64,000 nucleotides of DNA from Escherichia coli (GCF_050320075.1 NZ_CP190018.1), one strand, 5' to 3'. Positions 24,462 to 45,348 are shown, counted from the stretch's first letter. Numbers and translations: made by a program. Notes: a model not told the origin generated them from the sequence alone.

Positions 24462-27205
24462 AGGCGTTTACCTATGAACGTGTGAACACCCCGGCCGAGG
24501 CGGCACTTAGCGCTCAGCGCGTACCTGGCGCAAAATTTATCGCTGGCGGGACCAATCTGCTGGACCTGATGAAGCTGGAAATTGAAACGCCAACCCACCT
24601 TATCGATGTGAACGGGCTCGGGCTCGATAAGATTGAAGTGACCGACGCGGGTGGGCTGCGCATCGGCGCACTGGTACGGAACACCGACCTGGCGGCTCAC
24701 GAGCGCGTGCGTCGTGATTACGCGGTACTCTCCCGCGCCCTGCTCGCTGGCGCGTCTGGTCAGTTACGCAATCAGGCAACCACCGCAGGTAATCTGCTCC
24801 AGCGCACGCGCTGCCCCTATTTTTACGACACCAATCAGCCCTGCAATAAGCGCCTGCCCGGGAGCGGCTGCGCGGCACTTGAAGGCTTTAGCCGTCAGCA
24901 CGCGGTGGTAGGCGTAAGCGAAGCCTGCATTGCCACCCATCCGAGCGATATGGCGGTCGCAATGCGGTTGCTGGATGCGGTGGTGGAAACCATCACGCCG
25001 GAGGGAAAGACTCGCAGTATCACACTGGCTGATTTTTATCACCCTCCGGGAAAAACGCCGCACATTGAAACCGCCCTGCTTCCCGGTGAGCTTATCGTTG
25101 CGGTGACGTTACCTCCGCCGCTCGGCGGAAAACATATCTACCGCAAGGTGCGCGATCGCGCCTCCTACGCCTTTGCCCTGGTATCGGTCGCGGCGATTAT
25201 TCAGCCTGACGGCAGCGGGCGCGTCGCGCTGGGCGTACTGGCTGTCATTACCGCCAGTAACGCCGGGGCACTCGGCAAAGGCGACAAAAACACCGCCAGG
25301 CTGTTAGGCGGCCCCACTATTGAACACTATCATCAGGCCATTGCGCTGGTAGTGGCCGAGACCTTCGAACAGGCGCGAGCGGCGGCCTCGCTGGTGCAGG
25401 CGCACTATCGCCGTAATAAAGGAGCTTACTCCCTGGCGGACGAGAAACAGGCCGTCAGTCAGCCGCCGGAAGACACGCCCGATAAAAATGTTGGTGACTT
25501 TGACGGGGCTTTCACCTCCGCTGCGGTGAAGATTGATGCTACCTACACGACCCCGGACCAGAGCCATATGGCGATGGAGCCGCATGCCTCGATGGCCGTC
25601 TGGGATGGAAATAAGCTTACCCTCTGGACCTCAAATCAGATGATTGACTGGTGCCGCACCGATCTGGCAAAAACGCTGAAAGTGCCCGTGGAGAATGTGC
25701 GTATTATCTCCCCGTATATCGGCGGAGGGTTTGGCGGCAAGCTGTTCCTGAGAAGCGATGCGCTGCTGGCGGCCCTCGCCGCCCGTGCGGTGAAACGTCC
25801 GGTTAAAGTGATGCTCCCCCGCCCCACTATTCCCAATAACACCACGCACCGCCCCGCCACCCTTCAGCACTTGCGTATCGGTACTGACCAGAGCGGGAAA
25901 ATCACCGCTATCTCACATGAAAGCTGGTCCGGAAACCTGCCCGGCGGCACGCCGGAAACGGCGGTACAGCAAAGCGAATTTCTTTACGCAGGGGCGAATC
26001 GTCATACCGGCCTGCGGCTCGCCATGCTTGATTTGCCGGAAGGGAACGCCATGCGTGCGCCCGGCGAAGCCCCCGGTCTGATGGCGCTCGAAATCGCGAT
26101 CGATGAACTGGCGGAAAAAGCGGGCATCGATCCCGTCGAGTTTCGCATCCTGAATGACACTCAGGTTGACCCCGCCGATCCGACGCGCCGCTTCTCTCGC
26201 CGTCAGCTTATCGAGTGCTTGCGCACCGGAGCGGATAAATTTGGCTGGAAGCAGCGCAACGCCACACCCGGACAGGTACGCGACGGGGAGTGGCTAGTCG
26301 GCCACGGTGTTGCGGCGGGCTTTCGCAATAATCTGCTGGAAAAATCGGGTGCGTGGGTTCACCTGGAGCAAAACGGCACCGTTACCGTGGAAACGGACAT
26401 GACCGATATTGGCACTGGCAGCTACACCATTCTGGCCCAGACGGCAGCGGAAATGCTTGGCGTACCGCTGGAGCAGGTTGCGGTTCACCTCGGCGATTCC
26501 AGTTTCCCGGTTTCTGCGGGGTCTGGTGGACAATGGGGCGCGAATACCTCCACCTCCGGCGTTTACGCCGCCTGTGTGAAGCTTCGCGAAATGATTGCCT
26601 CGGCAGTCGGGTTTGATCCTGAGCAGTCGCAGTTTGCCGACGGCAAGATTACCAACGGTACCCGAAGCGCCACGCTACATGAGGCCACCGCAGGCGGCAG
26701 ACTGACAGCGGAAGAGAGCATTGAATTCGGAATACTGAGCAAGGAGTACCAGCAATCGACCTTTGCCGGGCATTTTGTGGAGGTCGGCGTGCATAGCGCG
26801 ACGGGAGAAGTTCGGGTCCGGCGTATGCTCGCCGTGTGCGCAGCGGGGCGCATTCTGAATCCGAAAACTGCACGCAGCCAGGTCATTGGCGCGATGACTA
26901 TGGGCATGGGCGCGGCACTGATGGAGGAGCTGGCGGTAGATGACCGTTTGGGCTACTTCGTTAATCACGATATGGCGGGGTATGAAGTGCCGGTTCATGC
27001 GGATATCCCAAAACAGGAGGTGATTTTCCTGGATGATACCGACCCCATCTCCTCCCCGATGAAGGCCAAAGGTGTCGGTGAGCTGGGCCTGTGCGGCGTG
27101 AGCGCGGCTATCGCCAACGCGGTGTATAACGCCACCGGTATTCGGGTACGGGATTATCCCATCACTCTGGATAAGCTGCTCGATAAGCTGCCGGATGTGG
27201 TTTAA
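24458..27205 (+). CDS. aldehyde oxidoreductase FAD subunit (PaoB) fused in frame to the molybdopterin subunit (PaoC); apparent internal deletion
   Basis: Single 915-aa ORF: the N-terminal ~258 aa are a CO-dehydrogenase-flavoprotein-type FAD domain ([13 protein letters not shown]), continuing without stop at ...DGSGRVALG|[11 protein letters not shown]... into a molybdopterin-binding large subunit that lacks its first ~75 residues. Confidence 0.8.
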
Positions 27206-30752: not shown

Positions 30753-30938
30753 AAAAATCCCCATAAAAAACAACAGAGAGATACAGGTTTCCGACGGACA
30801 ACGCTGCGGTGCTTTACTTTGATGGGGTCATTATAGTGAGCAGAATTAGTGCTGATTAGGGGGCGATTAATGCTAAGATTAATACCATATTGTTATAAAT
30901 TAATGTGGAGATTGCCGGCATGAAGGGGGGATGTTTCA

Positions 30939-31823
30939 ATGGCGAAAAGGGAGAACTACAACGAGCTGTACCTGTTTATGCAGGTGGTGCGGGAAGGCAG
31001 CTTTACCGCAGCGGCTCAGCGGCTGGGTCTTGCTCAGTCAGGAGTCAGCCGTTCTGTTCGCGAGCTTGAAGAAAGGCTGGGTGTCCAGCTGCTAGTGCGC
31101 ACCACGCGTAAACTGTCGCTGACACAAGCAGGCGAGCAGCTCTACCAGAAGACGGCATCTGGATTTGAAATGTTAGATCTTGGGCTTGCCACGCTGGCGC
31201 ATTATCGAGAGACGCCCTCCGGCACGGTGCGTATCAATGCCAGCCAGCACGCGATTGATAAATGCCTGCTGCCAAAGCTGGCGGTATTTAAACAGAGATA
31301 TCCTGATATCCGGCTTGAACTGATAAATGAGAGCCGGTTCGTCGATATCATCGAGGAAAGATTCGATGCAGGTGTCCGCCTGGGGCCTGAAGTCGGCCAG
31401 GGTATGGTCGCGGTACGCATCACGCCCGATATGGAGATGGCAATTGTGGGGACTCCGGAACATTTTCGTCGCTATGGTTTTCCGCAAACCCCGGCGGATT
31501 TAAAGGCGCATCCCTGTATCGCCTATCAGTTTGCCGACGGCAGCGTATACCAGTGGGAACTCAATCAGGATGATAAAAAAATCACTCATCGCCCTGAAGG
31601 GCAATGGGCCCTATCCGACAGCTATATGGAAGCAGAAGCCGCCCGGCTGGGCCTCGGATTGGCCTATGTTCCTGTTGAACTGGTCGCGGATGATTTAGAA
31701 CACGGTAAGCTTATCAGGGTGTTGCAGCGTTACAGCCTGCGAATGGAGGGATTGTTTCTCTATTACCCTCATCGCAACGTCTCCCCCGCCCTGCGGATGG
31801 TCATTGATACATTGAAAATCTGA
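30939..31823 (+). CDS. LysR-family transcriptional regulator
   Basis: 294 aa; HTH LYLFMQVVREGSFTAAAQRLGLAQSGVSRSVRELEERL; divergent from the hydrolase/MFS pair. Confidence 0.85.
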   Translation: MAKRENYNELYLFMQVVREGSFTAAAQRLGLAQSGVSRSVRELEERLGVQLLVRTTRKLSLTQAGEQLYQKTASGFEMLDLGLATLAHYRETPSGTVRINASQHAIDKCLLPKLAVFKQRYPDIRLELINESRFVDIIEERFDAGVRLGPEVGQGMVAVRITPDMEMAIVGTPEHFRRYGFPQTPADLKAHPCIAYQFADGSVYQWELNQDDKKITHRPEGQWALSDSYMEAEAARLGLGLAYVPVELVADDLEHGKLIRVLQRYSLRMEGLFLYYPHRNVSPALRMVIDTLKI

Positions 31824-32043
31824 ACGTTAACAACGACCGACTCTTCACTGTGCAAAATTGTGTCAGGTAGTCCCTCTGCGTTCAATTCCAGGGTCTGCTT
31901 TGAGCGAGAAAGAGGGGACTATCCAGCAATGGAGATCACCCAAAAGAAAAAACCACCTGGCTCCCTCGACAACCTTCATCCGGGCATTTAGCCTCAATCA
32001 ACATTTTTATATCTGTCAGGTTACTTCATTATGAAAACTGATC

Positions 32044-32270
32044 ATCATCGTTGTTTTTGTTGCAATAGTAGAATACGCGTATTTATTCCTCCATCTCTAT
32101 TAATAACGGCAATAAACTGTTCACTTCACTGATATTTAAAATATGTATCCTTTTCAAGCTGTTCAGCGGCGTAAGAAAAAGTATTAATTATGAATTCGAT
32201 GATTTAACCATATCTGTCTGATTGGTAATCATCCGTGATTAATGCTGGTCTATTGATTACGCCAGAACCC
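32044..32270 (+). repeat. degenerate second copy of the ykgR 3' region joined directly to a ykgO 3' end-like segment
   Basis: 32044-32160 aligns by eye (roughly 80 percent) with 13155-13270, and 32170-32270 with 13951-14065 (encodes ...AVQRRKKKY* versus ykgO ...AVQGRKKKR*); the ykgM/ykgO body is absent between them. Confidence 0.7.
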
Positions 32271-33177
32271 TCTCTAGCTTATTCACCGCCGCCACATACT
32301 TCGCCGGATTTTTATCTTTAAGCACCGCCAGATTGCGTTGCTTCCAGCGAATAGCCGGAAGATGCTGAATTTCAGGATAGCGATACCGCGACCAGTCAGG
32401 GCTGTTTTGCTTAAAACTGAGCAAGAACTCGCGATCCAGATCCGTAAGATGTGACTTCAACGCCTGCGGCAGCAAAGTCGTTACTGACAGAAGCGATTCC
32501 AGCGACGTTTCCTGTTGCGTCATCCCTGAAAATTCCTGCGCGTACAACGTGGCGATCCGCTCTGTATCCCAGTTTGGAGCCAGCAACTCGGCGATGGGGC
32601 GGGGATGGCCTGCCAGATAACAAAGAAAACCGTCAAAGATCTCCCGCATCAGTCCCGGTTTCTCCAGCATATTCAGCACATCAAACAGATCGCGCGGGTG
32701 CTGACGATCAAGCGCAGCGCAGATTTTACCGCCATAAAGATCCGCCAGCGAGACGACACTCATGGTGGTGAAGCCATACTCCATTTCCACACGTTCGCAC
32801 ACAGGCATTTCTGCCGGAGGCAACAACAGCCCGCGCCAGACCGGGCTAACCTCGATCTTAATCTTTGCATCAGCGGTATTCACAATGATGCGCTTTTCAT
32901 CCGCTTTATTTTCCTGCCGAATCGCGGTGATCCCCGGTCTGCCGTTCAGCGATGCAGTAATCCTCTTCAAAGCGTCGTTGATAGCCGCCAAATCAGTATC
33001 GCGATCCGCAAAGCTCTTGTACGCCAGATCAATATCCACCGACAGACGGGGAAAATCCTGCACAAACAAATTGATTGCGGTGCCGCCTTTCAACGCGAAA
33101 CAGGACTCCTTCGCCACATACGGCAGAGCGGCCATCAACAGTTTGACCTGCCGGGCATAGCTATCACGCAGATCCAT
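32257..33177 (-). CDS. AbiEii/AbiGii-family nucleotidyltransferase toxin (type IV TA / abortive infection)
   Basis: 306 aa; NTase motifs (ALKGGTAINLF, DIDL); overlaps the upstream antitoxin gene by 14 nt. Confidence 0.85.
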   Translation of the reverse strand: MDLRDSYARQVKLLMAALPYVAKESCFALKGGTAINLFVQDFPRLSVDIDLAYKSFADRDTDLAAINDALKRITASLNGRPGITAIRQENKADEKRIIVNTADAKIKIEVSPVWRGLLLPPAEMPVCERVEMEYGFTTMSVVSLADLYGGKICAALDRQHPRDLFDVLNMLEKPGLMREIFDGFLCYLAGHPRPIAELLAPNWDTERIATLYAQEFSGMTQQETSLESLLSVTTLLPQALKSHLTDLDREFLLSFKQNSPDWSRYRYPEIQHLPAIRWKQRNLAVLKDKNPAKYVAAVNKLERVLA

Positions 33178-33967
33178 CTTCGACTCCTTCCGGTTTAAAT
33201 GCGCGTGGAACAGTAATTTGATAATCCGGCTCCAGCCAGCCGCCGGGTATGATTTGCCGCTTTCCCGTACCTGTTTCTATACCGCTTTGATCAATATACT
33301 GAAAATAAGGGTGTCCATTACGCCGGGCAAGGTAAAGCATCACCCGGTTGGTTTTAACCGAATGGCTGGCGCGAAGCAGTGCCTGCAATTTGCGTGGGCT
33401 GAGAAGATTCAACCCCTGAAACAGAGCATCGGCATGTTCGAACGAGATTAACGAAGGAACGCCGCAGGCGATCTCATACGCGGCCAGTTCCGGAACACTG
33501 CCTGCTAACTGGCGGTCGCCAATTTTCAGTTCCGTAGTAAATGGCGTTACATCAGCGGTAAGGCCTGACGTATACAGCGTGACAAACGTTGCGGATTGTT
33601 CAAAGGCAGAAAACCATCCCGGCAGTTTGACGTAAGCCGGAAGCGCGAGCCAGACCTGCGGCTTACCCTGTTCGGTATAGTGCGCATGACCCTGAAGCGC
33701 AAGGCTGGTTAGCCCCGCCACCCGAACAGGCTTTTCCCACTGCGATTGCAGGCAGTAAACCGCATCCACCCAATCCGGTTCACGACCCGTCCGGCAGTAT
33801 ACGCCGTGAGCGATCCGCCTGAGCCAGCCATTCTTCACATAGAGATAAGAGAGCTTACGATCTATGCCGTTGCGGGTAAGCCATGACTGGAGCAGCACCT
33901 GGCCGGGTAGCGTGTGCTGCATCAGCCAGTTTAGATAGTTTGGCAACTGTCGCCTCTGAATAGACAT
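33164..33967 (-). CDS. AbiEi-family antitoxin / transcriptional regulator
   Basis: 267 aa, N-terminal winged-helix-like region; immediately upstream of and overlapping AbiEii. Confidence 0.8.
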   Translation of the reverse strand: MSIQRRQLPNYLNWLMQHTLPGQVLLQSWLTRNGIDRKLSYLYVKNGWLRRIAHGVYCRTGREPDWVDAVYCLQSQWEKPVRVAGLTSLALQGHAHYTEQGKPQVWLALPAYVKLPGWFSAFEQSATFVTLYTSGLTADVTPFTTELKIGDRQLAGSVPELAAYEIACGVPSLISFEHADALFQGLNLLSPRKLQALLRASHSVKTNRVMLYLARRNGHPYFQYIDQSGIETGTGKRQIIPGGWLEPDYQITVPRAFKPEGVEDGSA

Positions 33968-34261
33968 TAGTACAAATATTTAAACCAGTGTAGATTCAGG
34001 GATACGCCACAGCAAGAAATAGTTTACTTATTCCTCATTTTGTCGACTAAAAATCGACATTAAACAAAAAATTCAAACTTAATCACTTTCGGGAAAAATG
34101 TGACAAATATATGCTCGGACTGGTTGCGGGGAGCGTGTAACATGGATACAAATCAAAATTATTGCCAGCCTCACTGATGGATTACTGGTGTCAAGAGCCC
34201 CCCTTCGGGCATGAAACGGCTGGCTAATTCTGTACAGACTGTAATCTAAGGACGATAACGC

Positions 34262-37200
34262 ATGACATATCAGGCAATTTTCACTGGCTGGGATGATCTG
34301 ACGATTGAAGACCTTCTGGTCGCTTACCGGAAAGCAAAAGCCGATAGCTTCTTTGAGAATACATTTCCTGTTGCTATCAAATTTGCCGAGTATGAGCAGG
34401 AATTACTTGAAAACCTGCAAAAACTCTTAGATCTTTTGCAGAGCGAAGATGGATTCAGTAGCAATAAGAAGTTGATTGGCAAATTTCGATTGTTACCGAA
34501 AAAATTAACCACAAAGAAAAAACATGAATCCCAAAATGGACACGTCCACTTTTCTAATCCTAAACGAGCAGCCGACCATTTATTTAATAATTTTGATCTG
34601 ATACCAGAGTTTCGTATTATTGGTGACTTCCCGGTTGATAGTCACATTATCTCTGCACTATGGATTAACATGGTCGGGCATAAATTTGATGCCAGCTTAG
34701 ATAACTGTTGCTATGGCGCGCGGCTAAAGCGTATTCGTAATGATGAATTATTTAGCAATGAGCAGGATAATCCATTCCATATCAGTGCCGTGGGTTCTTT
34801 TAGCCCCTACTTCCAGCCCTACCAAAAATGGCGTGGTGATGGCTTAAAAGCTATACGTGACGAGTTGGAAAAAGATCGTGACATTATCGCCGCCTCACTG
34901 GATTTAAAAAGTTACTATCATTTTATTGATCCACTGGCTATAACCTCTGATGATCTCTATAACACACTAAACATAAAACTGACTGAGGATGAAAAAGCGT
35001 TTACTGCACAGTTAGCAGTATTCTTAAAGCACTGGTCTGACGGCGCAGCGGCATTTGGAAAGAAAATAGCGTACAAAACACCTGTTATTAATGGTGGTCT
35101 GGTCATTGGATTAACAGCCAGTCGGATCATTTCAAATATATTGCTACACCATTGGGATAAATTAGTCATTGAAAAACTATCACCAATTCACTACGGTCGT
35201 TATGTCGATGATATGTTCCTTGTAATACGCGATACAGGGACAATTACTAATAATCACGAATTTATGTTATTGCTGCAAGATAGGCTTGGCAATGATTGCG
35301 TTTATTTGAAAAACGAGCAAAAACAAATATGGCAAATACAGCAGGGCGAGCATTTCCAGGGTAAGACCACCATCCAGTTACAATCCGATAAGCAAAAACT
35401 TTTCGTGCTTCAAGGGAGGGCTGGAATAGACCTGCTCGACAGTATCGAAAAGGAGATCTACGAGCTTTCTAGTGAACACCGCTTGATGCCTTCACCGGAT
35501 CAACTGGAACACTCCACCGCAGCTAAAGTCCTTTCCGCTGCCGGTAGTGTAGGTGAAAATGCCGATACTCTGCGCCGTGCGGATGGATTAACCATTCGTC
35601 GTTTGGGCTGGTCACTGCAATTACGCTACGTTGAAACACTGGCACGAGATCTGCCTCCAAGTGAATGGAAAGAACAGCGGGAAGAGTTTTATCAGTTTGC
35701 CTACAACCATATTCTTAGGGCTGATAATCTATTTGCACATTTTAGTTATCTGCCAAGGCTGCTTGGCTTTGCTATCAGTATGAATGAATGGCAGCACGCG
35801 GAAAAAATTGTACTTAAAGCTTACGAATCCATCAACCTGTTGGCATCGGTGATTACTTCAGGTAAGGAAGTGAATATAAATGGTTGCAAAACTCGAGCAG
35901 TAAATGATCTTTGGCGCTGTATAAAAGGCACATTAAGCTGGCTATTTGTTGATGCAGCGACACGATATTACAGTCCTGACAGATTATTTCTTGATAAACG
36001 TTCAAAGAAAGAAGAGTGCCTTGCGGATACATTTTTTAATCATATTTCACAAAGTCTGACGAATCTAAAGGATTTACTGGATCTTCGCTTTGATTCAGCA
36101 GATTTTTATTTAAAAGCGCCATTGGTAGCTCGAGCTGATTTAGCAAAGGAACCTTATAAACAGATCGTAAAGAGTCAGTCGGCAGAAAAACTTGTTAATC
36201 AGCGTGATAGTAAAAAAGAAGTTAAAATACTGAAATTAATGAGCGACTCATCGCTTATTGATATTGACGTTATTAAGCTATTTTTGAAATCAACCAAGAA
36301 TACCCGACTGGAAAAAGTGGCTAAAGGAAATCGTAAGAACGAAAGTTACCTACCTTACATTTTCCCTACACGTCCTTTAACACCCGCTGAAATATCAGAA
36401 CTGGCCCCCGAATGTGTTGGATTACCCTCCACATCCGACAAAAAACCAGATGAGAGACCGTCCACCATTTGGGCAAAATATACTCAAGCATTACGCGGAG
36501 TATGGATCAAACCGACGTTGCTAGCATCGGAGCAGGACTCAGATGAAGCGACAAAAAAAGCTCGGCCTAAGAAATTCATTCATATTGGCACAGACAGGAA
36601 ACATAAAGTTGTCGTTGCGCTAACCAGCATTAAAACAGAGGAGGACGACTGGGCTAAAATGGCCTGCAATAAATCTAACTTGTCCCGTTCAAGGTACCAG
36701 CGGATTTCTGAACTGGTTAATGCAACATTGAAACTATCTCCTAAACCTGATTATGTTTTATTCCCTGAGCTTTCAATCCCGTTACGCTGGGTTAACAGTA
36801 TTGCTGATCGTTTGAGTTCGGCGGGTATCAGTCTAATTGCGGGAACAGAATACCGCCACTTAGACGATAATCAACTGAAGAGTGAGGCCGTACTTGTCCT
36901 TTCAGATAACAGACTCGGCTATCCAGCGAGTGTCAAAATATGGCAACCCAAGCTGGAACCCGCCGTAGGTGAAGATGAGGCATTATTTTCAATTTATGGT
37001 AAGTCTTGGGATTCGACACTTAATGTTAAACAACGTAAGCCGGTATATATTCATCACGGCGTCAATTTTGGCGTTATGATTTGCTCTGAACTCCAGAATA
37101 GTAAAGCGAGGATCCGTTTTCAGGGCGCACTCGATGCATTAATGGTATTGAGCTGGAATAAAGATCTAGATACGTTTGCATCGTTGATTGAATCAGCAGC

Positions 37201-37471
37201 GCTGGATATTCATGCCTATACTATTTTAGTGAATAACCGAAAATACGGCGATAGTCGCGTACGTTCCCCGGCAAAAGAACCCTTTATGCGTGATATTGCT
37301 CGTGTGAAGGGCGGTGATAATGACTTTGTGGTCGCTGCAACGCTGGATATCGACTCGTTAAGGGCATTTCAGAGCAGGGCAAAACGCTGGCCTAAAGGCG
37401 GCGATAAATTCAAACCGTTACCTGAAGGATTCCAGTTGGCAAAGAACCGCAAAAAGCTACCGCCAAAATAA
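34262..37471 (+). CDS. reverse transcriptase fused to a C-terminal nitrilase (carbon-nitrogen hydrolase) domain; DRT type 1 / UG1-like defence RT
   Basis: 1069 aa. RT motif A ASLDLKSYYHFID, motif B GGLVIGLTASRIISNILL, motif C YGRYVDDMFLV (YxDD). C-terminal domain has nitrilase catalytic-triad contexts FPELSIP (Glu) and GVMICSE (Cys). AT-rich relative to flanks. Confidence 0.85.
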   Translation: MTYQAIFTGWDDLTIEDLLVAYRKAKADSFFENTFPVAIKFAEYEQELLENLQKLLDLLQSEDGFSSNKKLIGKFRLLPKKLTTKKKHESQNGHVHFSNPKRAADHLFNNFDLIPEFRIIGDFPVDSHIISALWINMVGHKFDASLDNCCYGARLKRIRNDELFSNEQDNPFHISAVGSFSPYFQPYQKWRGDGLKAIRDELEKDRDIIAASLDLKSYYHFIDPLAITSDDLYNTLNIKLTEDEKAFTAQLAVFLKHWSDGAAAFGKKIAYKTPVINGGLVIGLTASRIISNILLHHWDKLVIEKLSPIHYGRYVDDMFLVIRDTGTITNNHEFMLLLQDRLGNDCVYLKNEQKQIWQIQQGEHFQGKTTIQLQSDKQKLFVLQGRAGIDLLDSIEKEIYELSSEHRLMPSPDQLEHSTAAKVLSAAGSVGENADTLRRADGLTIRRLGWSLQLRYVETLARDLPPSEWKEQREEFYQFAYNHILRADNLFAHFSYLPRLLGFAISMNEWQHAEKIVLKAYESINLLASVITSGKEVNINGCKTRAVNDLWRCIKGTLSWLFVDAATRYYSPDRLFLDKRSKKEECLADTFFNHISQSLTNLKDLLDLRFDSADFYLKAPLVARADLAKEPYKQIVKSQSAEKLVNQRDSKKEVKILKLMSDSSLIDIDVIKLFLKSTKNTRLEKVAKGNRKNESYLPYIFPTRPLTPAEISELAPECVGLPSTSDKKPDERPSTIWAKYTQALRGVWIKPTLLASEQDSDEATKKARPKKFIHIGTDRKHKVVVALTSIKTEEDDWAKMACNKSNLSRSRYQRISELVNATLKLSPKPDYVLFPELSIPLRWVNSIADRLSSAGISLIAGTEYRHLDDNQLKSEAVLVLSDNRLGYPASVKIWQPKLEPAVGEDEALFSIYGKSWDSTLNVKQRKPVYIHHGVNFGVMICSELQNSKARIRFQGALDALMVLSWNKDLDTFASLIESAALDIHAYTILVNNRKYGDSRVRSPAKEPFMRDIARVKGGDNDFVVAATLDIDSLRAFQSRAKRWPKGGDKFKPLPEGFQLAKNRKKLPPK

Positions 37472-37817
37472 GAAACTGATTTTCGCTATTAATAATCAGG
37501 GTATTTTTGCGTGAGATGTTGGTAAACATGATGTAGCCCTTGCCACTCATGACCAATCGCAGTATCTTTCTCCCGCGCCTGCAAAATCAGGCGTCGGGAT
37601 TAGCCTCCTGAAGAAATCTTATCGGCGACACATGACGCGCCAGCGTCTTTTTTTGTGTTGTTCGCACGGTTACATCTCAATGGTGGGCCGGGCGGGGGCG
37701 TCGCAAGACGCGCCAGTGTCCGATAAGGCTGGTAAGGCTAACCCTGCCCGGTTCCACCACCCGCGAGATTAGCCTCTCCGGTGGTGGCTTGAACACCCAC
37801 TTATCGGAGGTTGCCCT

Positions 37818-38288
37818 ATGGCTACAATCCTCACCACTGACAGCGATTTACTCGATCTATTGACCGTCCCCTTCAATGCCACCACGGATTTCACTGTCCT
37901 TGCTGACTACTGCGCCCGCTTTGCCGAAACCCTGATTGAAACCGACGATCCAGCGCTACGACTGGCGCTCTGCGGGCGGCTTCACGCGGCTCTTGCGCTA
38001 CTGCAACCCACACTACACGACCCCATCCCACCGCATCTTACCGAAAGCCTGACCGTGGATACCCTTCCCGCCACACCAGAGCACTTTATTTCCGAACCTG
38101 ATTCCTTGTGCGAATACTGCCTCGCACTACTCCAGCTTCTGCTGGAACGTCCGGCGGAACCAAAAATGGAGCAAACCCTGACCGGGCTGCTGTGTGAGCT
38201 GGTCTGGTATTTCACGGAAGGACTCAAAGCCCCACGCTGGCTGCGTACCGCCGACGGCGTAAAATTTATCAGCGAGGTGGCCGCATGA
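37818..38288 (+). CDS. hypothetical protein (156 aa, acidic, Leu/Ala-rich), GC-rich
   Basis: ORF with good coding statistics; its stop overlaps the ATG of the downstream Ner-like fragment (ATGATG), suggesting an operon. Confidence 0.5.
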
Positions 38289-38410
38289 TGCAACAGGACT
38301 GGCATTCCGCCGACATTATTGCGGTGCTGAAAAAGCGGGGAACGCCTCTGGCGGCACAGAGAAAAACTCATTGCGGAAGCGCTGTAAATATCGCCAGAAA
38401 TCATCTGGCC
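38285..38410 (+). pseudogene. Ner/Nlp-like HTH regulator gene, frameshifted
   Basis: [25 protein letters not shown]... resembles the Ner/Nlp N-terminus (DWHxADIIAxLxKxG); continuation (REKLIAEAL) is in another frame. Confidence 0.5.
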
Positions 38411-38637
38411 TTCAAGGTACTTTGATAGCAAAGGCAAGCAGGCTGGTTCAGTCCAGTGTTTCTCTTCTTGCATTTTCAGAAATGGGAGGCTGGGAGTCTA
38501 TCGAAATGGTTCGTCGATATGCTCACCTCGCGCCTAATCACCTTACCGAACACGCACGGCAAATAGACTCAGTCCTGAACCCATCGGTCCCAAATTTGTC
38601 CCAGTCAAAAAATAAGGAAGGTACTAATGATGTGTAA
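38410..38637 (+). pseudogene. 3' fragment of a tyrosine-recombinase (phage integrase) gene
   Basis: Encodes ...[35 protein letters not shown]..., the C-terminal catalytic-Tyr region of phage integrases, with no N-terminal domains. Confidence 0.7.
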
Positions 38638-38789
38638 CTTATTGATTTTAATGGTGCGATAAGAGGAATGAATATTGCAAGTTAACGCATTGATTTATAA
38701 TAGATTATTATATTCAAAAAATATAACTATACACATATCTATACACACTGCGCGCATCGCTTGTTTTTCGCACAATTAAAAATAAGAAA

Positions 38790-39080
38790 AAAGTTTTTTT
38801 TCGAAAGAACTGTTCACACTGTTCACCTTTCTGTTTTCTCCTTTTATTTCAGTTTGATAGGTGGTGAATAATGGGTGAATGGTGAACATTCGATTCTTCA
38901 CCTCCGGCATTCTGCCGGTGTGACTCATACCGGTGATTAATCCCCCGTACTGAAATCACACAGGGAGAAAAAAAGTTTTTTTTGATTTGATTGTTCACAC
39001 TGTTCACCTTTCATTTTTCTCTTTTAATTTCAGTGTGATAACGGGTGAATATACGGTGAAGGGTGAACAGTGGATTGTTC
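38790..39080. repeat. P4-type crr (cis replication region): two ~100-bp direct repeats, each with TGTTCACC / GGTGAACA iterons
   Basis: Units at about 38790-38890 and 38973-39075 are near-identical and each contains TGTTCACACTGTTCACC plus inverted GGTGAAYA copies. Confidence 0.8.
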
Positions 39081-39098
39081 ACCTTCGGGGAATTCAGG

Positions 39099-39126
39099 GA
39101 TAAAAAAAGACCGGCAGATGCCGGTC
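39099..39126 (-). terminator. rho-independent terminator downstream of alpha
   Basis: Hairpin GACCGGCA / TGCCGGTC with an adjacent T-run on the minus strand. Confidence 0.55.
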
Positions 39127-39142
39127 AGATGAGTCATGATGG

Positions 39143-41476
39143 TCAGGTTGTTGCAGGGTCGTCACATTTTGGCAGCCAGTCGCCGTAGCTTTCCTCTTTC
39201 AGCGTCAGGTTGGTCTGTATCCCCTGTTTGGTATGGCGCTTCTCGTAATTCAGTCCGTATTCCTTCAGCATCACCGGCAGCCCCAGCCCGAACATTTTCA
39301 GACTGAGTACATTCCGGTAGCCGTTTGCCTCCATGTAGGCCAGATAGGCGTGATAGAGGTATTTACGGTAATTACGCGGGATGATACTGGCGTTCCCCAT
39401 ATACATGCCGCTGGTCTGCGGCAGGGTTTCCAGATAGCCGATAAAATCAAACGTCGGGTCGGCATCCCGTTTGATGTTCAGCGCCTCGTCTGAGTTCTGC
39501 TGGGACTGAAGCAGTGACCGGGCGAGCATCGGGTCGCTGAACTTCTGCATCAGGTGACGCACGATGACCGCCAGCTCGCGGGTGATTTTGTCCTTAAGCT
39601 GCGGGTCGCGCTCCTGCGGGGCTATCTGTTCCGGGAAGTGAATAATCACCCGCCGGCGTGACACGCCGCCGCTGCGGTCGGTGAAGCGCATCGGGTTATT
39701 GTTCACGGCCAGAATTACCGCCGGGATATGCGTGGAGTATGCATCCCGGTATTTCGGGTCAACGGACACCGCATCGCCGCCGGTGATGGCCTTGAGTCCG
39801 GCACCGTCGCCGCTCCATTTTTCCTGGTCCGGCAGGCGTATCAGTGAGAAGCCAGTTAACGCGGCACGTTCACGCGGGGATTCCAGCGTCTCGATGGTGG
39901 CCGACGTGGCGTTATCCTCCCCGGCCAGCAGGGTGGCTATTTCGGCCATGATACTTTTGCCGCTGCCGCCGGGACCGGTCACCTCCAGAAAGAGCTGCCA
40001 GTCGTAGCGGTTTGCCAGCACCATAAACAGTGCGGCCAGAATCACGTCGCGTTTTTCCGCACGGCCACCGGCGGCACGGTCAAGCCAGCGCCAGAACGCG
40101 GGGGCGTGGGTCTCCAGCGTTTCACCGTCCACCGGCGGGGTGAAATCCACATCGCACAGGGTGCGCATCCAGTGTGACGGACTGTGCGGGTGGAACGTGC
40201 CGTTCTGCGTGTCGAGCACGCCGTTACGAAAGCCAATCAGGCGGCGGGAGGGGGCTTCCTGCTGCGGAATAATCAGCTTCAGGGTGTCCACCACGGAGGC
40301 CACCTTCCCGGAGGAGAACGGCGCGCGCAGACGCTGAAACAGCCCGGCCACATCCCGGGCAAAGTCCTGTGGTGGCAGCACCTTCCAGACACCATTTTCA
40401 TAACGGGACAGAAGCTGGCCGTTGGCATCGACCGCGAGCGCCTCGCCGTAATGCTCATAGATACGCATGGCCTTTTCGCTGGTACTCATGGCGGAAAACT
40501 CCGCTTCGCTCATGGTGTCGAACGGGCTTTCAGCCGGTGGCCGGATGGCATCATAAATGGCCTTACGGGTGGCTTCCCCGCCGTACTGCGTGAAGGCATC
40601 ATTCCAGTCACCGAAGACCGGCGGCAGGGCAACAACGCCCTCACACGCATCTGCGGCTGCGGCGGCTTTTTTCTGGCCGTCACCGCTGAGGTCACGGTCT
40701 GCGGCAAGGACAATCTGACAGGCCGGATGCTTCTGCCGGGCAAGGCTGGCCAGAGAAAGGAGGTTCACGGAAGAAAGCGCCACCATCACCGTTTCACCGG
40801 TCAGGTGATGTACGGTAAGTGCGGTCGCGTATCCCTCCGCTATCCACAGACGTTTTCCGGCCTGATTCTGTCCTTCAAGGGTGTGACAGGTGCCCCTGAC
40901 CTGTCCGCCTTTCAGGGTGCGCTTACGGCCGTCAGCACTGATTAACTGAAGGTTAACCAGTTCGCCGCTGTCGTCATACAGTGGCACCACAAGGTCACCG
41001 GCACGCCAGCTCACGCCACCGGCTCTGTGTGTGCCGGTCAGCATCCGGCATTCCCGGCCGGGAAAGCCCTTGCGGGTCAGGTAGGCGTTACCGGTTCCGG
41101 GACGGGTTTTCGCCATCAGGGTTTGTGCCAGTGCGGCGGCGTTCTTCCGGGCAGCGTCTGTTTCAGCACCGGCGGCAGCCGTCACTGCCGGGTCAGCCGG
41201 GGGCAGGCTGCCGGTCACGGCAGCCACCTTTGCTGCCGCGTCGGACGGGGAAACACCAAACACCTTTTCAACCAGTTTCAGGCCGTCACCGGCACCACAC
41301 TGATTGCAGTACCAGGTGCCGCGCCCCTCCCTGTCATCAAAACGGAAGCGGTCACTCCCGCCACAGACCGGACAGGGCTGATGACGGTTTTTCAGCACCT
41401 GAATCCCCAGCGCCGGGAGAATACGCGGCCAGTGGCCGAGCGCATGGCTGACGGTGGCGGTTACGTTCATTTTCAT
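39143..41476 (-). CDS. alpha: P4 alpha-type primase-helicase
   Basis: 777 aa; N-terminal zinc-binding primase motif (CPVCGGSDRFRFDD...WYCNQCGAGDG), central and C-terminal helicase region; iterons on both sides. Confidence 0.9.
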   Translation of the reverse strand: MKMNVTATVSHALGHWPRILPALGIQVLKNRHQPCPVCGGSDRFRFDDREGRGTWYCNQCGAGDGLKLVEKVFGVSPSDAAAKVAAVTGSLPPADPAVTAAAGAETDAARKNAAALAQTLMAKTRPGTGNAYLTRKGFPGRECRMLTGTHRAGGVSWRAGDLVVPLYDDSGELVNLQLISADGRKRTLKGGQVRGTCHTLEGQNQAGKRLWIAEGYATALTVHHLTGETVMVALSSVNLLSLASLARQKHPACQIVLAADRDLSGDGQKKAAAAADACEGVVALPPVFGDWNDAFTQYGGEATRKAIYDAIRPPAESPFDTMSEAEFSAMSTSEKAMRIYEHYGEALAVDANGQLLSRYENGVWKVLPPQDFARDVAGLFQRLRAPFSSGKVASVVDTLKLIIPQQEAPSRRLIGFRNGVLDTQNGTFHPHSPSHWMRTLCDVDFTPPVDGETLETHAPAFWRWLDRAAGGRAEKRDVILAALFMVLANRYDWQLFLEVTGPGGSGKSIMAEIATLLAGEDNATSATIETLESPRERAALTGFSLIRLPDQEKWSGDGAGLKAITGGDAVSVDPKYRDAYSTHIPAVILAVNNNPMRFTDRSGGVSRRRVIIHFPEQIAPQERDPQLKDKITRELAVIVRHLMQKFSDPMLARSLLQSQQNSDEALNIKRDADPTFDFIGYLETLPQTSGMYMGNASIIPRNYRKYLYHAYLAYMEANGYRNVLSLKMFGLGLPVMLKEYGLNYEKRHTKQGIQTNLTLKEESYGDWLPKCDDPATT

Positions 41477-41490
41477 GGTGTTGTTCTCCT

Positions 41491-41811
41491 TCAGTGCAGT
41501 ACCGGCGCTTTTATGTGACGGGCACAGAGTTCATCCATCACAACCAGCCCGAGAAAGGACAGCGACGGCGCGGCCTTCAGGGGGCCGGATTCCATTAAAT
41601 CTTCCAGCAGGGCACAGGCTATCTGACGCCCTTTTTCCTCACCGTGCTGGCGCAGATAAAAGCCTTCCAGCTCAGCGGCGATGGCCGCCTCCAGTGATTC
41701 AAGGGTGAGATGCGGGTAGCGGTGCTGACGTTCGCACACGGTCAGCCAGGCACAGGCGACAGCGCGACGGTAAAGGGCTGCGCGTAAGACGGGCGGTAAG
41801 GGTGTTTTCAT
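41491..41811 (-). CDS. P4-family conserved hypothetical protein (106 aa)
   Basis: ORF directly upstream of alpha in the left operon. Confidence 0.55.
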
Positions 41812-41946
41812 TTGTTTTCCTCCCTGTGACAGATGACTGCATTCCGTGCCGGTTGCATTAACTGATAAGGCATATCTGCGTCTCCTGAAGACGTGCGTAT
41901 CCCTGCGCGAATACGCACATTTAATTTTTCGGGTGTCGTTTTTTAA

Positions 41947-42402
41947 TTACAGATAATTGCGGTAACTGTTATCCGGGGTGATTTCCGGGTCAGGCTCCGT
42001 GCGGGGAATTTCCCGCCATTCCCGCGCCACCGGTGCCGCCCGGCTGGCCGGAACAGTGTCCTGCGGGTAAATATCCAGATATTTCTCCCGCCATTTCTGT
42101 AATTCCGGGTCTCCGGCCATTTCTTTCAGTACCGCATGCCGGTTTACGGGGCTGCGTTTAAACAGGTCAGGACGGTCACAGGTAAATTCCCGCAGAAAAC
42201 GCCCCAGCGGGATGTCTGTGGTGCGCCCGTCAGCGAGGATACGCACAAGGATACTGAATTTACGGCGGTACGGGTTCCAGACAATGTCCGGGCAGCGGTA
42301 CGGCATTTCCCACGGAATACCGTCTTCCAGAATGCCGACCACGGCCACATCGGGAAAACCGGCAGAACGGTAAATCTCACCGGGCTGGGGAAAATCAAAC
42401 AT
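41947..42402 (-). CDS. P4-family conserved hypothetical protein (151 aa; P4 orf151-like position)
   Basis: ORF in the alpha operon; size and position as in P4. Confidence 0.55.
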   Translation of the reverse strand: MFDFPQPGEIYRSAGFPDVAVVGILEDGIPWEMPYRCPDIVWNPYRRKFSILVRILADGRTTDIPLGRFLREFTCDRPDLFKRSPVNRHAVLKEMAGDPELQKWREKYLDIYPQDTVPASRAAPVAREWREIPRTEPDPEITPDNSYRNYL

Positions 42403-42682
42403 GCGTCCTGTCTCCCCGGTCTTTCTGCTGGGCGAGAAAATCGCGGCACAGGCCTTTGGCTTTCAGTTCATTCAGCACAAAATCAATATCTTCATTCAGG
42501 TAGCTGAAAATATGCGGAATGTAGAGCTGATGCAGGCCGGAGAGTTCACGGTGAATCAAATCACCCCCAACAAACCGGGATACGGCGCTGGCGCGGTTGA
42601 GCTTATGGTAAGCCTCAATGCTGAGGTGTTCACGGGCGTCATGACGCGCTGAGACGGTCTGAGGGGCTTTTTTATTACGCAC
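42395..42682 (-). CDS. P4-family small protein with probable GTG start (95 aa; epsilon-like position)
   Basis: GGAGG RBS 6 nt upstream of GTG at 42682; ORF ends overlapping the orf151-like start; the 177-aa ORF in the track is probably an over-extension. Confidence 0.4.
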
Positions 42683-42875
42683 GGGACACCTCCACCACCG
42701 GCAGACGGGCAGCAAGGGAGAGCACATAGTCACGGACAAGGGAACGGCGGGCGCTGCGTTCATCACCGGCGACGGTGCGAAGCATACAGATACGGGGATG
42801 ACGATCTGCGCGACGGACAGCCGCAAACACAAAGACAAATTCAGGGTGTGAGGTGGTAAGGGTTGTAGCCATGAT
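42675..42875 (-). CDS. P4-family small hypothetical protein (66 aa, [26 protein letters not shown]...)
   Basis: Short ORF immediately downstream of the immunity-RNA region; stop overlaps the next start. Confidence 0.4.
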
Positions 42876-42883
42876 GGCAGCCT

Positions 42884-43136
42884 CCTTGAAGTAACAGTTA
42901 CAGCTACCACTGGAGTTCCTACGCTCATGGGTGGTAGCCCGGACGGGGGTAGGAATACCGGCCTTCAAGGAAACCGGCCAGCCCGAAGGCTGCCCCGCCC
43001 GGACCACCATTATCTGACAGAGGCTACGGTTTAAAAACCACAGCCAGAAAAACAGGTGTGCCGAAGCAACGACGTAAAAAAAGACGCATGGCGCGTCATA
43101 TGTCGCCTTGAAGTAACTCGGGTTCCTACGCCCGGC
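42884..43136 (-). ncRNA. P4-type RNA immunity region (CI-RNA-like seqB flanked by complementary seqA / seqC-like repeats)
   Basis: Direct repeats CCTTGAAGTAAC...GTTCCTACGC at 42884-42924 and 43106-43136, and between them (42949-42971) GGTAGGAATACCGGCCTTCAAGG, complementary to both; in the untranslated leader of the left operon. Confidence 0.5.
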
Positions 43137-43225
43137 TGCCGATTTTGCGGCAGCGGAAAAACTATATCCGCAAATGCCGGAAAAAGGCAAGCCAGAAAAA
43201 GGGACTTTTTGCAGAACAGGCATCA

Positions 43226-43492
43226 TCATGCGTCATACCCCCGTTGGCGTCCGGCAATGCGGCCGGCCATCCATGCGGTGACTTCAGAGTGCAGCCAGGC
43301 CACATTTTTACCGCCAAGACTCACCTGCGGCGGAAATTCCCCCTTACGGATGAGTTCATAGATGGTCGAGCGTGACAGGCCGCACAGGTGCATCACTTCC
43401 GGCAGACGTAAAAAACGCTCCTGCGTGATGTCCGGCAGCGGCATCAGTGGCGTCACAGGGGCGGGAGACGGGGAAGAAAAAACAGCTTGCAT
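43226..43492 (-). CDS. alpA: AlpA-family phage regulatory protein (small MerR-like HTH)
   Basis: [50 protein letters not shown] is the AlpA signature; true start may be the internal Met (43444). Confidence 0.85.
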
Positions 43493-43769
43493 CGGGCTAC
43501 CTCGTTAATGTCCATACAGCACCGGATAAGTCCGTCCGGCTTCTGGTAGCGCTTTATTTTGTGAATATTTTCAGCAGACGCAACAGGGGGAATTTGTTCC
43601 GGCAACCTTACAATGGCTGTGTGTTTTTTATCCATCTGGACTGGAAGGGTCTCAAAGGGTTCTGAAGGACCTGGAATTTTTTATAGTGAAATACAAATTG
43701 TTTTTTCTTATTTATTTCAGTGAATTAATAAAAATAAACAGTGATAAACAGCATAAAAAGCCCATCAAC

Positions 43770-43880
43770 GGGTGAACAGTGGTGAACAGACGGTGAACAG
43801 TCATTACTGCGATTGTTCACCCTTTAACTTACTGTATTACTTATCTTTTTTCTTATGGTGAACAGAGGTGAACAGTAAAA
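43770..43880. repeat. P4-type origin of replication: six GGTGAACA / TGTTCACC iterons
   Basis: GGTGAACAGTGGTGAACAGACGGTGAACAG (43771-43800), TGTTCACC (43815-43822), GGTGAACAGAGGTGAACAG (43858-43876), within AT-rich DNA between alpA and sid. Confidence 0.8.
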
Positions 43881-44043
43881 TATAAAAAAACAAACAGTAA
43901 GCCGGTTTTTCCTGCGACCTTTTCCTGGCTTGCCGGTCTGAGGATGAGTCTCCTGTGTCAGGGCTGGCACATCTGCAATGCGTCGTGTTGCTGTCCGGTG
44001 TACGTCACAATTTTCTTAACCTGAAGTGACGAGGAGCCGGAAA

Positions 44044-44778
44044 ATGTCTGACCACACTATCCCTGAATATCTGCAACCCGCACTGGCACAACTGGAAAAG
44101 GCCAGAGCCGCCCATCTTGAGAACGCCCGCCTGATGGATGAGACCGTCACGGCCATTGAACGGGCAGAGCAGGAAAAAAATGCGCTGGCGCAGGCCGACG
44201 GAAACGACGCTGACGACTGGCGCACGGCCTTTCGTGCAGCCGGTGGTGTCCTGAGCGACGAGCTGAAACAGCGCCACATTGAGCGCGTGGCACGCCGGGA
44301 GCTGGTACAGGAATATGACAATCTGGCCGTGGTGCTGAATTTCGAACGTGAACGCCTGAAAGGGGCGTGTGACAGCACGGCCACCGCCTACCGGAAGGCA
44401 CATCATCACCTTCTGAGTCTGTATGCAGAGCATGAGCTGGAACACGCCCTGAATGAAACCTGTGAGGCGCTTGTCCGGGCAATGCATCTGAGCATTCTGG
44501 TACAGGAAAATCCGCTCGCCAACACCACCGGCCATCAGGGCTACGTCGCACCCGATAAGGCTGTCATGCAGCAGGTGAAATCATCGCTGGAACAGAAAAT
44601 TAAACAGATGCAAATCAGCCTCAGCGGCGAGCCGGTTCTCCGGCTGACCGGACTGTCAGCGGCAACACTTCCGCACATGGATTATGAGGTGGCAGGCACA
44701 CCGGCACAGCGCAAGGTGTGGCAGGACAAAATAGACCAGCAGGGAGCAGAGCTTAAGGCCAGAGGACTGCTGTCATGA
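44044..44778 (+). CDS. sid: P4 Sid-type capsid size determination (external scaffold) protein
   Basis: 244 aa from the internal Met (MSDHTIPEYLQPALAQLEKARAAH...), coiled-coil rich; followed by delta and psu. Confidence 0.85.
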   Translation: MSDHTIPEYLQPALAQLEKARAAHLENARLMDETVTAIERAEQEKNALAQADGNDADDWRTAFRAAGGVLSDELKQRHIERVARRELVQEYDNLAVVLNFERERLKGACDSTATAYRKAHHHLLSLYAEHELEHALNETCEALVRAMHLSILVQENPLANTTGHQGYVAPDKAVMQQVKSSLEQKIKQMQISLSGEPVLRLTGLSAATLPHMDYEVAGTPAQRKVWQDKIDQQGAELKARGLLS

Positions 44779-45275
44779 TTTACTGCCCGTCGTGTGGACA
44801 TGTTGCTCACACCCGTCGCGCACATTTCATGGACGATGGCACCAAGATAATGATTGCACAGTGCCGGAATATTTATTGCTCTGCGACATTTGAAGCGAGT
44901 GAAAGCTTTTTCTCTGACAGTAAAGATTCAGGAATGGAATACATTTCAGGCAAACAGAGATACCGCGATTCACTGACGTCAGCCTCCGGCAGTATGAAAC
45001 GCCCGAAAAGAATGCTTGTTACCGGATATTGTTGTCGGAGATGTAAAGGCCTTGCACTGTCAAGAACATCGCGGCGTCTGTCTCAGGAAGTCACCGAGCG
45101 TTTTTATGTGTGCACGGATCGGGGCTGTGGTCTGGTGTTTAAAACGCTTCAGACCATCAACCGTTTCATTGTCCGCCCGGTCACGCCGGACGAACTGGCA
45201 GAACGCCTGCATGAAAAACAGGAACTGCCGCCAGTACGGTTAAAAACACAATCATATTCGCTGCGTCTGGAATGA
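44775..45275 (+). CDS. delta: P4 Delta-type late transcription activator (tandem Ogr-like zinc fingers)
   Basis: 166 aa; two CxxC...CxxC zinc-finger units (MIYCPSCGH...CRNIYC and YCCRRCKG...CTDRGC). Confidence 0.9.
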   Translation: MIYCPSCGHVAHTRRAHFMDDGTKIMIAQCRNIYCSATFEASESFFSDSKDSGMEYISGKQRYRDSLTSASGSMKRPKRMLVTGYCCRRCKGLALSRTSRRLSQEVTERFYVCTDRGCGLVFKTLQTINRFIVRPVTPDELAERLHEKQELPPVRLKTQSYSLRLE

Positions 45276-45348
45276 GGGCTGCCGGTTAACACCGGCCGTC
45301 GCCGCACACCGTATTTTTATTCTTCAGCATGATGAGAAAGAGATAACG

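Follow-up and report, generated by a model that had tools for sequence, protein, structure and literature searches.

Among the described systems closest to the locus reported here is GI-thrW of Escherichia coli ST131, published for strain EC958 as a 10.8-kb island carrying a Type I restriction-modification (R-M) system (Totsika et al. 2011, PMC3203889; PMC4659465). P4-like satellites, which occupy tRNA sites and have a tyrosine integrase with defence cargo beside it, provide another comparison (Rousset et al. 2022, PMC9122126). Here we describe a defence islet of ~6.4 kb at positions 32257-38637 of a 64,000-nt stretch of E. coli DNA (NZ_CP190018.1; hereafter the window, on which positions are counted unless a locus is named). 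The islet is bracketed by a LysR gene (30939-31823) and a P4-like satellite, and contains an AbiEii/AbiEi gene pair, a gene for a reverse transcriptase (RT) fused to a nitrilase, and a right arm composed of the isrK and C4 RNA genes, a 156-amino-acid (aa) open reading frame (ORF), a Ner-like gene and the 3' end of an integrase gene. A first-pass annotation had taken this block for the decayed remnant of an earlier integrative element that kept its defence cargo, and this is borne out by two relatives, in strains AR_0089 and 06-00048, which retain more of the island. We consider it probable that the block is the immobilised remnant of a thrW island of the ST131 GI-thrW family, joined to what is left of an older prophage of the SfII/P22 type, namely its last 200 bp.

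In AbiE systems, the control of AbiEii by AbiEi covers both the expression and the activity of the toxin. AbiE is a type IV toxin-antitoxin and abortive infection system, described in Lactococcus and Streptococcus agalactiae, in which AbiEi checks the nucleotidyltransferase toxin AbiEii, leading to abortive infection, and which works on its own (Dy et al. 2014, as reported in a paper that cites it).

The RT-nitrilase resembles the UG5-large (class 3) enzymes, i.e. DRT11 of S. meliloti, DRT5L and an E. coli RT-nitrilase accompanied by a protein with one transmembrane (TM) segment. All are longer than 1000 aa, with an N-terminal YVDD RT and a C-terminal fused nitrilase bearing Glu-Lys-Cys, and are located in a defence island or mobile element. 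The TM partner is optional for UG5-large and is found in a minority of its members (PMC9226505; DRT11 preprint). A UG5-large RT without it protects S. meliloti (DRT11 preprint), and in the RT-nitrilase + 1TM system from an E. coli P4 hotspot the TM gene was required (PMC9226505). DRT1, DRT5S and DRT5L perform template-free, protein-primed synthesis; the adducts of DRT1 lead to the assembly of a dormant filament, whose activation requires a phage helicase, and both active sites are needed, while the priming serine of DRT1, S402, is reported not to be conserved among other class 3 RTs (PMC13275509).

Relatives of the islet and the loss of its left end

Presence and absence were scored in 5,426 complete E. 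coli genomes, to which the genome counts below refer. The RT gene was found in 259 of them (~4.8%), with its ORF intact and at least 99% identical throughout, the AbiE pair in 832 and the right arm in 803. The comparison of presence, absence and junctions proposed in the first-pass annotation thus shows an accessory block. A conserved core region with the same arrangement was not what these genomes revealed, as both an empty site and alternative cargo exist. The comparison loci were L003; L004, from AR_0089 (ST131-type); L006, the unoccupied site of strain EC1; L008, from strain 06-00048; L009, an asn-tRNA island; L014, a metagenomic contig; L010 and L011, two identical Salmonella loci; and L002, from K-12. 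Strain YZLc1-3 (NZ_CP123240) matches the window at 100% identity throughout the region.

The ST131 GI-thrW of EC958 and SE15 occupies the same chromosomal site and has the same AbiE pair (93-95% nt identity) and the same right arm (~90% nt identity), in which the truncated Ner-like gene (Ner') is joined to the integrase fragment (int') at the same point. The window differs from it in carrying the RT in place of hsdRMS, in lacking the integrase and the 47-nt att copy, and in its left backbone. In AR_0089 the island spans 10.8 kb and consists of a 47-nt partial thrW, a tyrosine integrase gene (439 aa, one internal stop), AbiE (93% nt identity to the window), hsdRMS, isrK/C4, the 156-aa gene, int' and thrW. 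In 06-00048 the order is LysR, ykgR', a hypothetical gene, a short-chain dehydrogenase/reductase gene, a full second LysR gene (LysR2), a 3' stub of 225 bp of the same integrase gene as in AR_0089, AbiE, RT, the right arm and thrW.

The window aligns with the latter locus in two blocks, 30900-32265 with L008 2972-4355 and 32256-38667 with L008 7289-13699, which overlap by 10 nt. The overlap reads ATTACGCCAG in the backbone and ATTACTCCAG at the AbiEii stop (consensus ATTAC(G/T)CCAG), and the backbone copy of TTACGCCAG lies at L008 4347. As the two blocks overlap in this way, the window corresponds to L008 minus 2.9 kb, removed at a microhomology. From these comparisons it appears that the island's own integrase gene lay to the left of AbiEii and decayed stepwise, being first interrupted by a stop codon, then reduced to a 3' stub and finally lost.

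The first-pass annotation had placed the left boundary of the islet at a ykgR/ykgO-like scar. Such a scar does exist: 32047-32141 and the 3' end of the true ykgR (13167-13261) share 92.6% identity, and 32193-32223 is 87% identical to 13991-14021, directly downstream of ykgO. It is not, however, an island boundary, since this backbone is present both in 06-00048 and at the empty site of EC1, where the order is LysR, ykgR', a LysR2 fragment and thrW. Nor were att-like direct repeats, for which a search had been suggested, found at the left edge of the islet. A search allowing up to 3 mismatches gave no copy of the thrW core at the left border, the only one being at 48850 beside the P4-like integrase, and a generic direct-repeat search over 31.7-50.5 kb did not yield a pair of att sites belonging to the islet. 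When the 3' flank of LysR was aligned globally with K-12, the result was uninformative; yagP of K-12 corresponds to a second, different LysR gene, which is not in the window.

The right end and thrW

The integrase debris had been regarded as part of the decayed element, a view that could not be upheld. The fragment shares 87% aa identity over 67 residues with the C-terminus (Int 321-387) of the integrase of Shigella phage SfII, which is of the P22 type, and 60% with the integrase of the resident P22-like prophage. The DNA after its stop codon is the SfII attP flank (cttattgattt(t/a)aa), followed by the 3' end of tRNA-Thr. The resident P22-like prophage shows the intact geometry, ending integrase-14 nt-thrW-proA in the source genome. 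The fragment thus appears to be a separate prophage relic, what is left of such an int-14 nt-thrW arrangement after a deletion. The window shares with the thrW phages SfII, SfV and P22 the attP flank and the final 67 codons of the integrase gene; only ~230 bp of that prophage survive.

In L003, which lacks both the P4-like and the P22-like element, the locus runs from LysR to int'-14 nt-thrW-proA, and thrW is followed by proA-proB-phoE. The match to the window ends at 38667 in 257 other complete genomes, and in most carrier genomes the islet appears to lie directly against thrW. In the window, 16 nt of the thrW 3' end are kept (38652-38667) before the P4-like satellite begins; a tRNA scan detected no tRNA in the window, and thrW lies ~29 kb past its end. 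As the islet abuts thrW in genomes without the two other elements, it represents the older thrW junction, as had been proposed, displaced by two later integrations.

The thrW flank as a whole carries layered integrase debris of several ages. Even in the empty thrW site, ~90 nt match the 3' terminus of a P22-like integrase gene such as YZLc1-3 now carries, and such debris was noted at L006 6432-6523, 3' of yagP in K-12 (L002 ~37100-37210, minus strand) and at L053 29231-29298.

The AbiE pair

Proteins of the window were searched against PADLOC, NCBIfam, PHROGs and Pfam (E<=0.001 for Pfam), and RNA genes were sought with Rfam. Defence-annotation tools had been proposed as a check, and PADLOC called AbiEii, AbiEi and RT_UG5-nitrilase.

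AbiEi and AbiEii are encoded on the same strand and overlap by 14 nt, with AbiEi upstream in a bicistronic arrangement, and both match PADLOC AbiE profiles over their full length. In these respects the pair is like AbiE of Lactococcus and S. agalactiae, and it differs in belonging to an enterobacterial subfamily, with a function predicted from sequence. AbiE without RT occurs in about 554 genomes, which are ST131-like, at ~95% identity to the pair in the window. Likewise, the region upstream of AbiEi (33968-34170) has 82% matches in about 570 genomes without RT. Near 34040-34061, 5' of AbiEi, there is a small inverted repeat, TGTCGA-N-TCGACA, which is kept in the metagenomic contig L014 and is a candidate AbiEi operator. 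A promoter and terminator consensus scan of the region between AbiEi and RT gave no sites.

The RT-nitrilase

The match of the RT-nitrilase to the PADLOC model RT_UG5-nitrilase (E=0, 1034.5 bits) covers residues 1-1068 of 1069. Conservation of catalytic residues was scored over 28 species-level homologues. None of them deviates at the RT motif YVDD (314-317), which aligns with the YVDD of DRT1, or at E836, K897 and C941 of the nitrilase. In the structure of DRT1 from Klebsiella pneumoniae (PDB 9yfd), the residue aligned with C941 is the catalytic C1116, in a match spanning 118 residues, and K897 is the putative lysine of the Glu-Lys-Cys triad. Both active sites appear intact. DRT1 (UG1) is thus alike in being an RT-nitrilase fusion with an aligned nitrilase cysteine, and its mechanism is presumed to be common to both, while similarity to the window protein is detectable only in the nitrilase C-terminus (E=1e-6). 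No Pfam match (RVT, CN_hydrolase) was obtained at the cut-off used, and of the 120 homologues listed none has an entry in the precomputed Pfam field; the literature does not define UG5 by such matches.

The gap between the RT stop codon and the next feature is only 136 nt, and no ORF for a TM protein was found beside the RT, which in this respect is like DRT11 and most UG5-large members. It differs from the described UG5-large enzymes in forming part of a tight gammaproteobacterial clade (64-82% identity), known from sequence alone, whose RT genes often stand at the end of a Type I R-M operon. This clade is uniform, its members being 1064-1081 aa long and sharing 48-82% identity across the Gammaproteobacteria.

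The cargo slot

Homology between the window and the ST131 GI-thrW breaks at 34170 and resumes at 37539, so that a 3.4-kb RT cassette stands opposite 6.1 kb of hsdRMS. The neighbourhood of the RT was read in 39 distinct loci outside E. coli whose upstream sequence was readable (7 contexts and 32 species-level loci, the identical Salmonella loci being counted once). In 16 of these 39, from Salmonella to Methylomonas, the RT gene is directly 3' of a conserved hsdRMS on the same strand, with HsdM 81-96% identical. The slot between hsdS and RT holds nothing, Kiwa-like KwaA and KwaB, PDC-M59A/B (Doc/Fic), a PDC-S06 ABC-ATPase or an AAA ATPase. The possibility that these genes are accessory factors of the RT was rejected, since their matches are to defence systems in their own right, known or candidate (Kiwa, PDC-M59, PDC-S06).

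Mobile, conserved hsdRMS-X-RT blocks of this kind were seen in L010, L012, L015-L017, L020-L022, L034, L036, L040, L042, L046, L050 and L051. A literature search pairing hsdS with reverse transcriptase and nitrilase found no account of them.

The contig L014, whose RT is 82% identical to that of the window, contains AbiEi, hsdRMS, RT, the isrK/C4 region, a 156-aa homologue and a helix-turn-helix (HTH) gene. As it aligns with both E. coli variants, the RT-only and the hsdRMS-only forms may be complementary reductions of an L014-like form. In Serratia marcescens the order AbiE-RT-156-aa gene is the same as in the window.

About 50 nt before the RT start codon (window 34201-34261) align with the last codons of the KwaB-like gene of Salmonella, Yersinia and Citrobacter. 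This stretch may have been left behind by a Kiwa-like neighbour that was lost, or else be a region conserved for translation initiation.

The right arm

A RefSeq 'ash family protein' ORF (37608-37772) overlies Rfam matches to isrK and C4, both well above their gathering thresholds, next to which a c4-a1b1 target-like match falls slightly under the Rfam threshold. The isrK and C4 matches are conserved in L004, L008 and L009. The trio of isrK, C4 and target recurs in the resident P4-like satellite at 42927-43167 (isrK/C4 pair at 42927-43154), and the copies align. Because of the Rfam matches and this conservation, the right arm is read as a putative immunity/regulatory module of the P1/P4 type and not as an 'ash' protein-coding region. 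A second RefSeq 'ash family protein' ORF, at 42897-43229, likewise coincides with isrK and C4 matches, and both ORFs are probably RNA genes mis-called as proteins.

The 156-aa protein gave no match in PADLOC, NCBIfam, PHROGs or Pfam, and has homologues in L009, L014 and L018. Its TGA overlaps the ATG of the Ner-like gene at 38285 (ATGA). The alignment with the intact 84-aa homologue of L009 uses two frames separated by a stop, one for residues 1-35 and the other for 42-74, so that the Ner-like gene of the window is frameshifted, nearly full length but broken. The overlap of a 156-aa ORF with a frameshifted Ner-like gene, which the first-pass annotation had described as translational coupling, is thereby confirmed. 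The Ner'/int' fusion point is identical in the RT and R-M variants, which places the deletion before their split.

In L009 the isrK/C4 genes are also followed by a homologue of the 156-aa gene and an intact Ner-like gene. More precisely, positions 14003-17045 of that asn tRNA island hold an intact module of isrK, C4, a ~153-aa gene and a Ner-like gene, and then HigA and a 294-aa Integrase_1-type protein. This suggests that isrK/C4/~153-aa/Ner is a common regulatory cassette of enterobacterial tRNA islands.

The islet shares with P4-like satellites its tRNA site, the tyrosine integrase (in relatives), defence cargo beside the integrase, and a C4/CI-type immunity RNA module that has a homologue in the bona fide satellite ~1 kb away. 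CP4-6, the cryptic element at thrW of K-12, likewise has its integrase at the thrW-distal end. On the other hand, primase, psu, delta, sid and cos were not found in the islet or the examined relatives (alpha primase-helicase and psu/delta/sid: none in the islet, L004, L008, L009, L014 or L018), the 439-aa integrase of the relatives is only 22-24% identical to IntF and the resident P4-like integrase (24% to the latter), and a tblastn search of the resident satellite found no homologues of the 156-aa or the Ner-like protein, with only the 'ash'/C4 region matching. A classification of the islet as a P4-like satellite was rejected, as only the immunity RNA module is shared and no P4-type integrase is present in the islet.

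Origin of the islet and alternative explanations

Comparison with the relatives supports both the structure of the element and its series of decay stages, from which the following history can be proposed. The ancestor would have consisted of a partial thrW (att), a tyrosine integrase gene, AbiEii/AbiEi, a cargo slot, isrK/C4, the 156-aa gene, the Ner-like gene, further genes and thrW. Through one deletion, a phage integrase gene beside thrW would have become fused by its 3' end to the Ner-like gene. Later deletions may have taken the island integrase and att, the last of them at the 10-nt microhomology, where chromosomal genes amounting to ~2.9 kb would also have gone. In this strain thrW would then have received a P4-like satellite and, after it, a P22-like prophage, the two moving the stump ~40 kb from the tRNA gene. 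What remains would be two independent, single-locus defences of the abortive-infection type, whose mechanisms we propose from characterised homologues. By analogy, AbiEii would be a nucleotidyltransferase toxin restrained by AbiEi, acting as transcriptional autorepressor and antitoxin. As in DRT1 and DRT5L, the RT-nitrilase would make template-free, protein-primed DNA adducts that hold the nitrilase effector dormant until a phage factor frees it.

Several observations weigh against this scenario. The window itself has neither an att repeat nor the island integrase, and the element is reconstructed from relatives only. Parsimony and not a phylogeny underlies the order of events (deletion versus insertion), and only the isrK/C4 module and the architecture of the integrase point to P4-like ancestry. 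As regards the RT, Pfam sees neither an RT nor a nitrilase domain, and the assignment draws on the PADLOC model, weak DRT/retron matches and the 118-residue match to DRT1. The E. coli UG5-large studied by others needed its TM partner (PMC9226505), while the RT of the window has no TM gene, and KwaA/KwaB-like genes stand in front of the RT in Salmonella, Yersinia and Citrobacter, so that a lone RT could be inactive.

Different histories of the block can nevertheless be weighed against the same evidence. If it were ordinary conserved core chromosome, its fixation and ~100% identity within carrier lineages would be expected, but its occurrence in ~5% of the complete genomes only, the empty site of EC1, the other cargo at the same place in AR_0089 and its atypical GC content leave this reading with next to no probability. 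It is also very improbable that a single element decayed in place, with the integrase fragment as its own and the ykgR-like scar as its other end. The two do bracket the block, yet the fragment is the end of an SfII-type phage integrase with a phage attP flank, the relatives have a different, full-length integrase across AbiE, beside the 47-nt partial thrW, and the scar is present at the empty site and, in 06-00048, lies 2.9 kb from the island.

Other alternatives concern the function of the cargo. AbiE and the RT-nitrilase could form one coupled system, in which, for example, the nucleotidyltransferase and the RT act on a common nucleic-acid product. In both E. coli and Serratia the two are divergent neighbours, Vibrio anguillarum has an AbiEii gene at a distance of 6 kb from its RT, and a nucleotidyltransferase toxin module stands beside the UG5-large of S. 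meliloti (DRT11 preprint). However, the same AbiE is found beside hsdRMS and without RT in the ST131-like genomes, most RT homologues of other genera have no AbiE within 10 kb, and both systems work alone (Dy et al. 2014, as described in a citing paper; DRT11 preprint). Coupling therefore seems improbable to us, and AbiE and RT probably act independently, given that either is widespread in the absence of the other. Some more weight, although the idea is still unlikely, is due to the RT being an orphaned, non-functional leftover of an hsdRMS-KwaA/KwaB-RT cassette, with AbiE as the sole active defence. The RT follows hsdRMS, usually with another system between them, in the 16 loci mentioned above, the sequence upstream of the E. 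coli RT resembles a KwaB-like 3' end, and the E. coli enzyme assayed elsewhere depended on a TM partner (PMC9226505). Against this stand the intact, almost invariant ORF in all 259 genomes, the invariance of the catalytic residues, about 20 species with an RT lacking a linked R-M system, the resemblance of the hsdS-RT inserts to separate defence systems and not to RT accessories, and the fact that DRT11 and DRT1 act as single genes.

It is conceivable that the RT-nitrilase clade is functionally tied to one Type I R-M lineage, as a back-up that fires when restriction is defeated, in the manner of PrrC with EcoprrI. We rate its probability as low, because the genes that separate hsdS from RT resemble distinct defence systems and the RT is frequently encoded on its own. 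The remnant of a GI-thrW-type island with two independent defences is the reading that we retain.

Features of the islet and neighbouring elements

The features named in the first-pass annotation, namely AbiEi/AbiEii, the RT-nitrilase, the 156-aa ORF, the Ner-like gene and the integrase 3' end, were all recovered at the positions it had given (Table 1). Not named there were the two Rfam RNA genes, isrK and C4 (37575-37764), and the 16-nt copy of the thrW 3' core at 38652-38667. Its description of a mixed composition also holds, with a GC content of 0.36-0.48 over the RT cassette and of 0.52-0.58 in the AbiE and 156-aa regions on either side.

Table 1. Coordinates of the features of the islet and its borders in the window
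Feature	Position	Strand	Evidence or remarks
Backbone relic	32047-32223	+	ykgR 3'-end paralogue 32047-32141 and ykgO-downstream-like piece 32193-32223; outside the island
Left deletion junction	32256-32265		10-nt microhomology ATTACGCCAG common to backbone and AbiEii 3' end
AbiEii nucleotidyltransferase toxin (predicted), 306 aa, intact	32257-33177	-	PADLOC PDLC02290, E=4.4e-116, residues 5-305; RefSeq annotation
AbiEi antitoxin/autorepressor (predicted), intact	33164-33967	-	PADLOC PDLC02227, E=5.1e-80; RefSeq annotation
AbiEi upstream region, conserved, common to ST131 GI-thrW	33968-34170		L004 homology ends at 34170
AT-rich RT cassette	34171-37538	+	Borders set by alignment to L004; composition; upstream alignment to KwaB-like 3' end
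UG5-large (class 3 UG/Abi) RT fused to C-terminal nitrilase, 1069 aa	34262-37471	+	PADLOC RT_UG5-nitrilase PDLC03780
isrK-like small RNA gene	37575-37653	+	Rfam RF01394, 68.8 bits (gathering score 50)
C4/CI-type antisense immunity RNA gene	37676-37764	+	Rfam RF01695, 71.1 bits (gathering score 45)
GC-rich 156-aa ORF	37818-38288	+	Conserved 3' of isrK/C4 in related islands
Ner/SfsB-like HTH pseudogene	38285-38441	+	NCBIfam SfsB, E=5e-7; frameshift and in-frame stop; last ~10 codons gone at integrase fusion
SfII/P22-type thrW-phage integrase 3' end, 67 codons	38434-38637	+	87% aa identity to SfII Int 321-387
SfII-attP-like 14-nt flank and 16-nt thrW 3' core copy (TGGTGC-GATAAGAGGA)	38638-38667		Aligned to SfII attP and to thrW in L003

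To the right of the islet lies the P4-like satellite (38668-48896), which comprises crr-like repeats (38785-39088), primase, psu, a HEPN cargo gene and an integrase gene (47480-48685). Its 123-nt direct repeat (38785-38907/38966-39088) is crr/ori-like and rich in TGTTCACC motifs, and the HEPN-domain gene (46123-47517) occupies the psu-int defence hotspot. The satellite looks intact, is integrated at a 16-17-nt thrW core and, of the 5,426 genomes, is found at this junction in this strain only. After its integrase gene there is a 47-nt partial thrW (48850-48896), followed by the P22-like prophage, whose left end (49127-51013) holds a tail-fibre fragment and an acyltransferase gene of the O-antigen-modifying type beside a tailspike gene. 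Elsewhere in the window (~24458-27205), paoB and paoC are annotated as truncated pseudogenes, joined mid-way by an internal deletion in this lineage.

Significance of the locus

All components of the islet are known, and it is a more decayed copy and a new cargo variant of the GI-thrW family, not a new type of system. Current concepts are left unchanged by these findings. For annotation, the locus illustrates that pipelines call an 'ash' protein over the isrK/C4 RNA genes. A UG5-large RT without a TM partner that is present in ~5% of complete E. coli genomes, including clinical isolates with extended-spectrum beta-lactamase, is a convenient native test system for class 3 DRTs. If the tie between the RT clade and a Type I R-M lineage were true, the E. 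coli thrW variants, with hsdRMS only or RT only, would be natural uncoupling mutants. The locus might thus be read, base by base, as a multi-step record of the passage from a mobile defence island to a fixed chromosomal defence locus, in which integrase and att loss, fusion to the debris of an earlier prophage, exchange of cargo and burial under newer elements at the same tRNA gene are all preserved.

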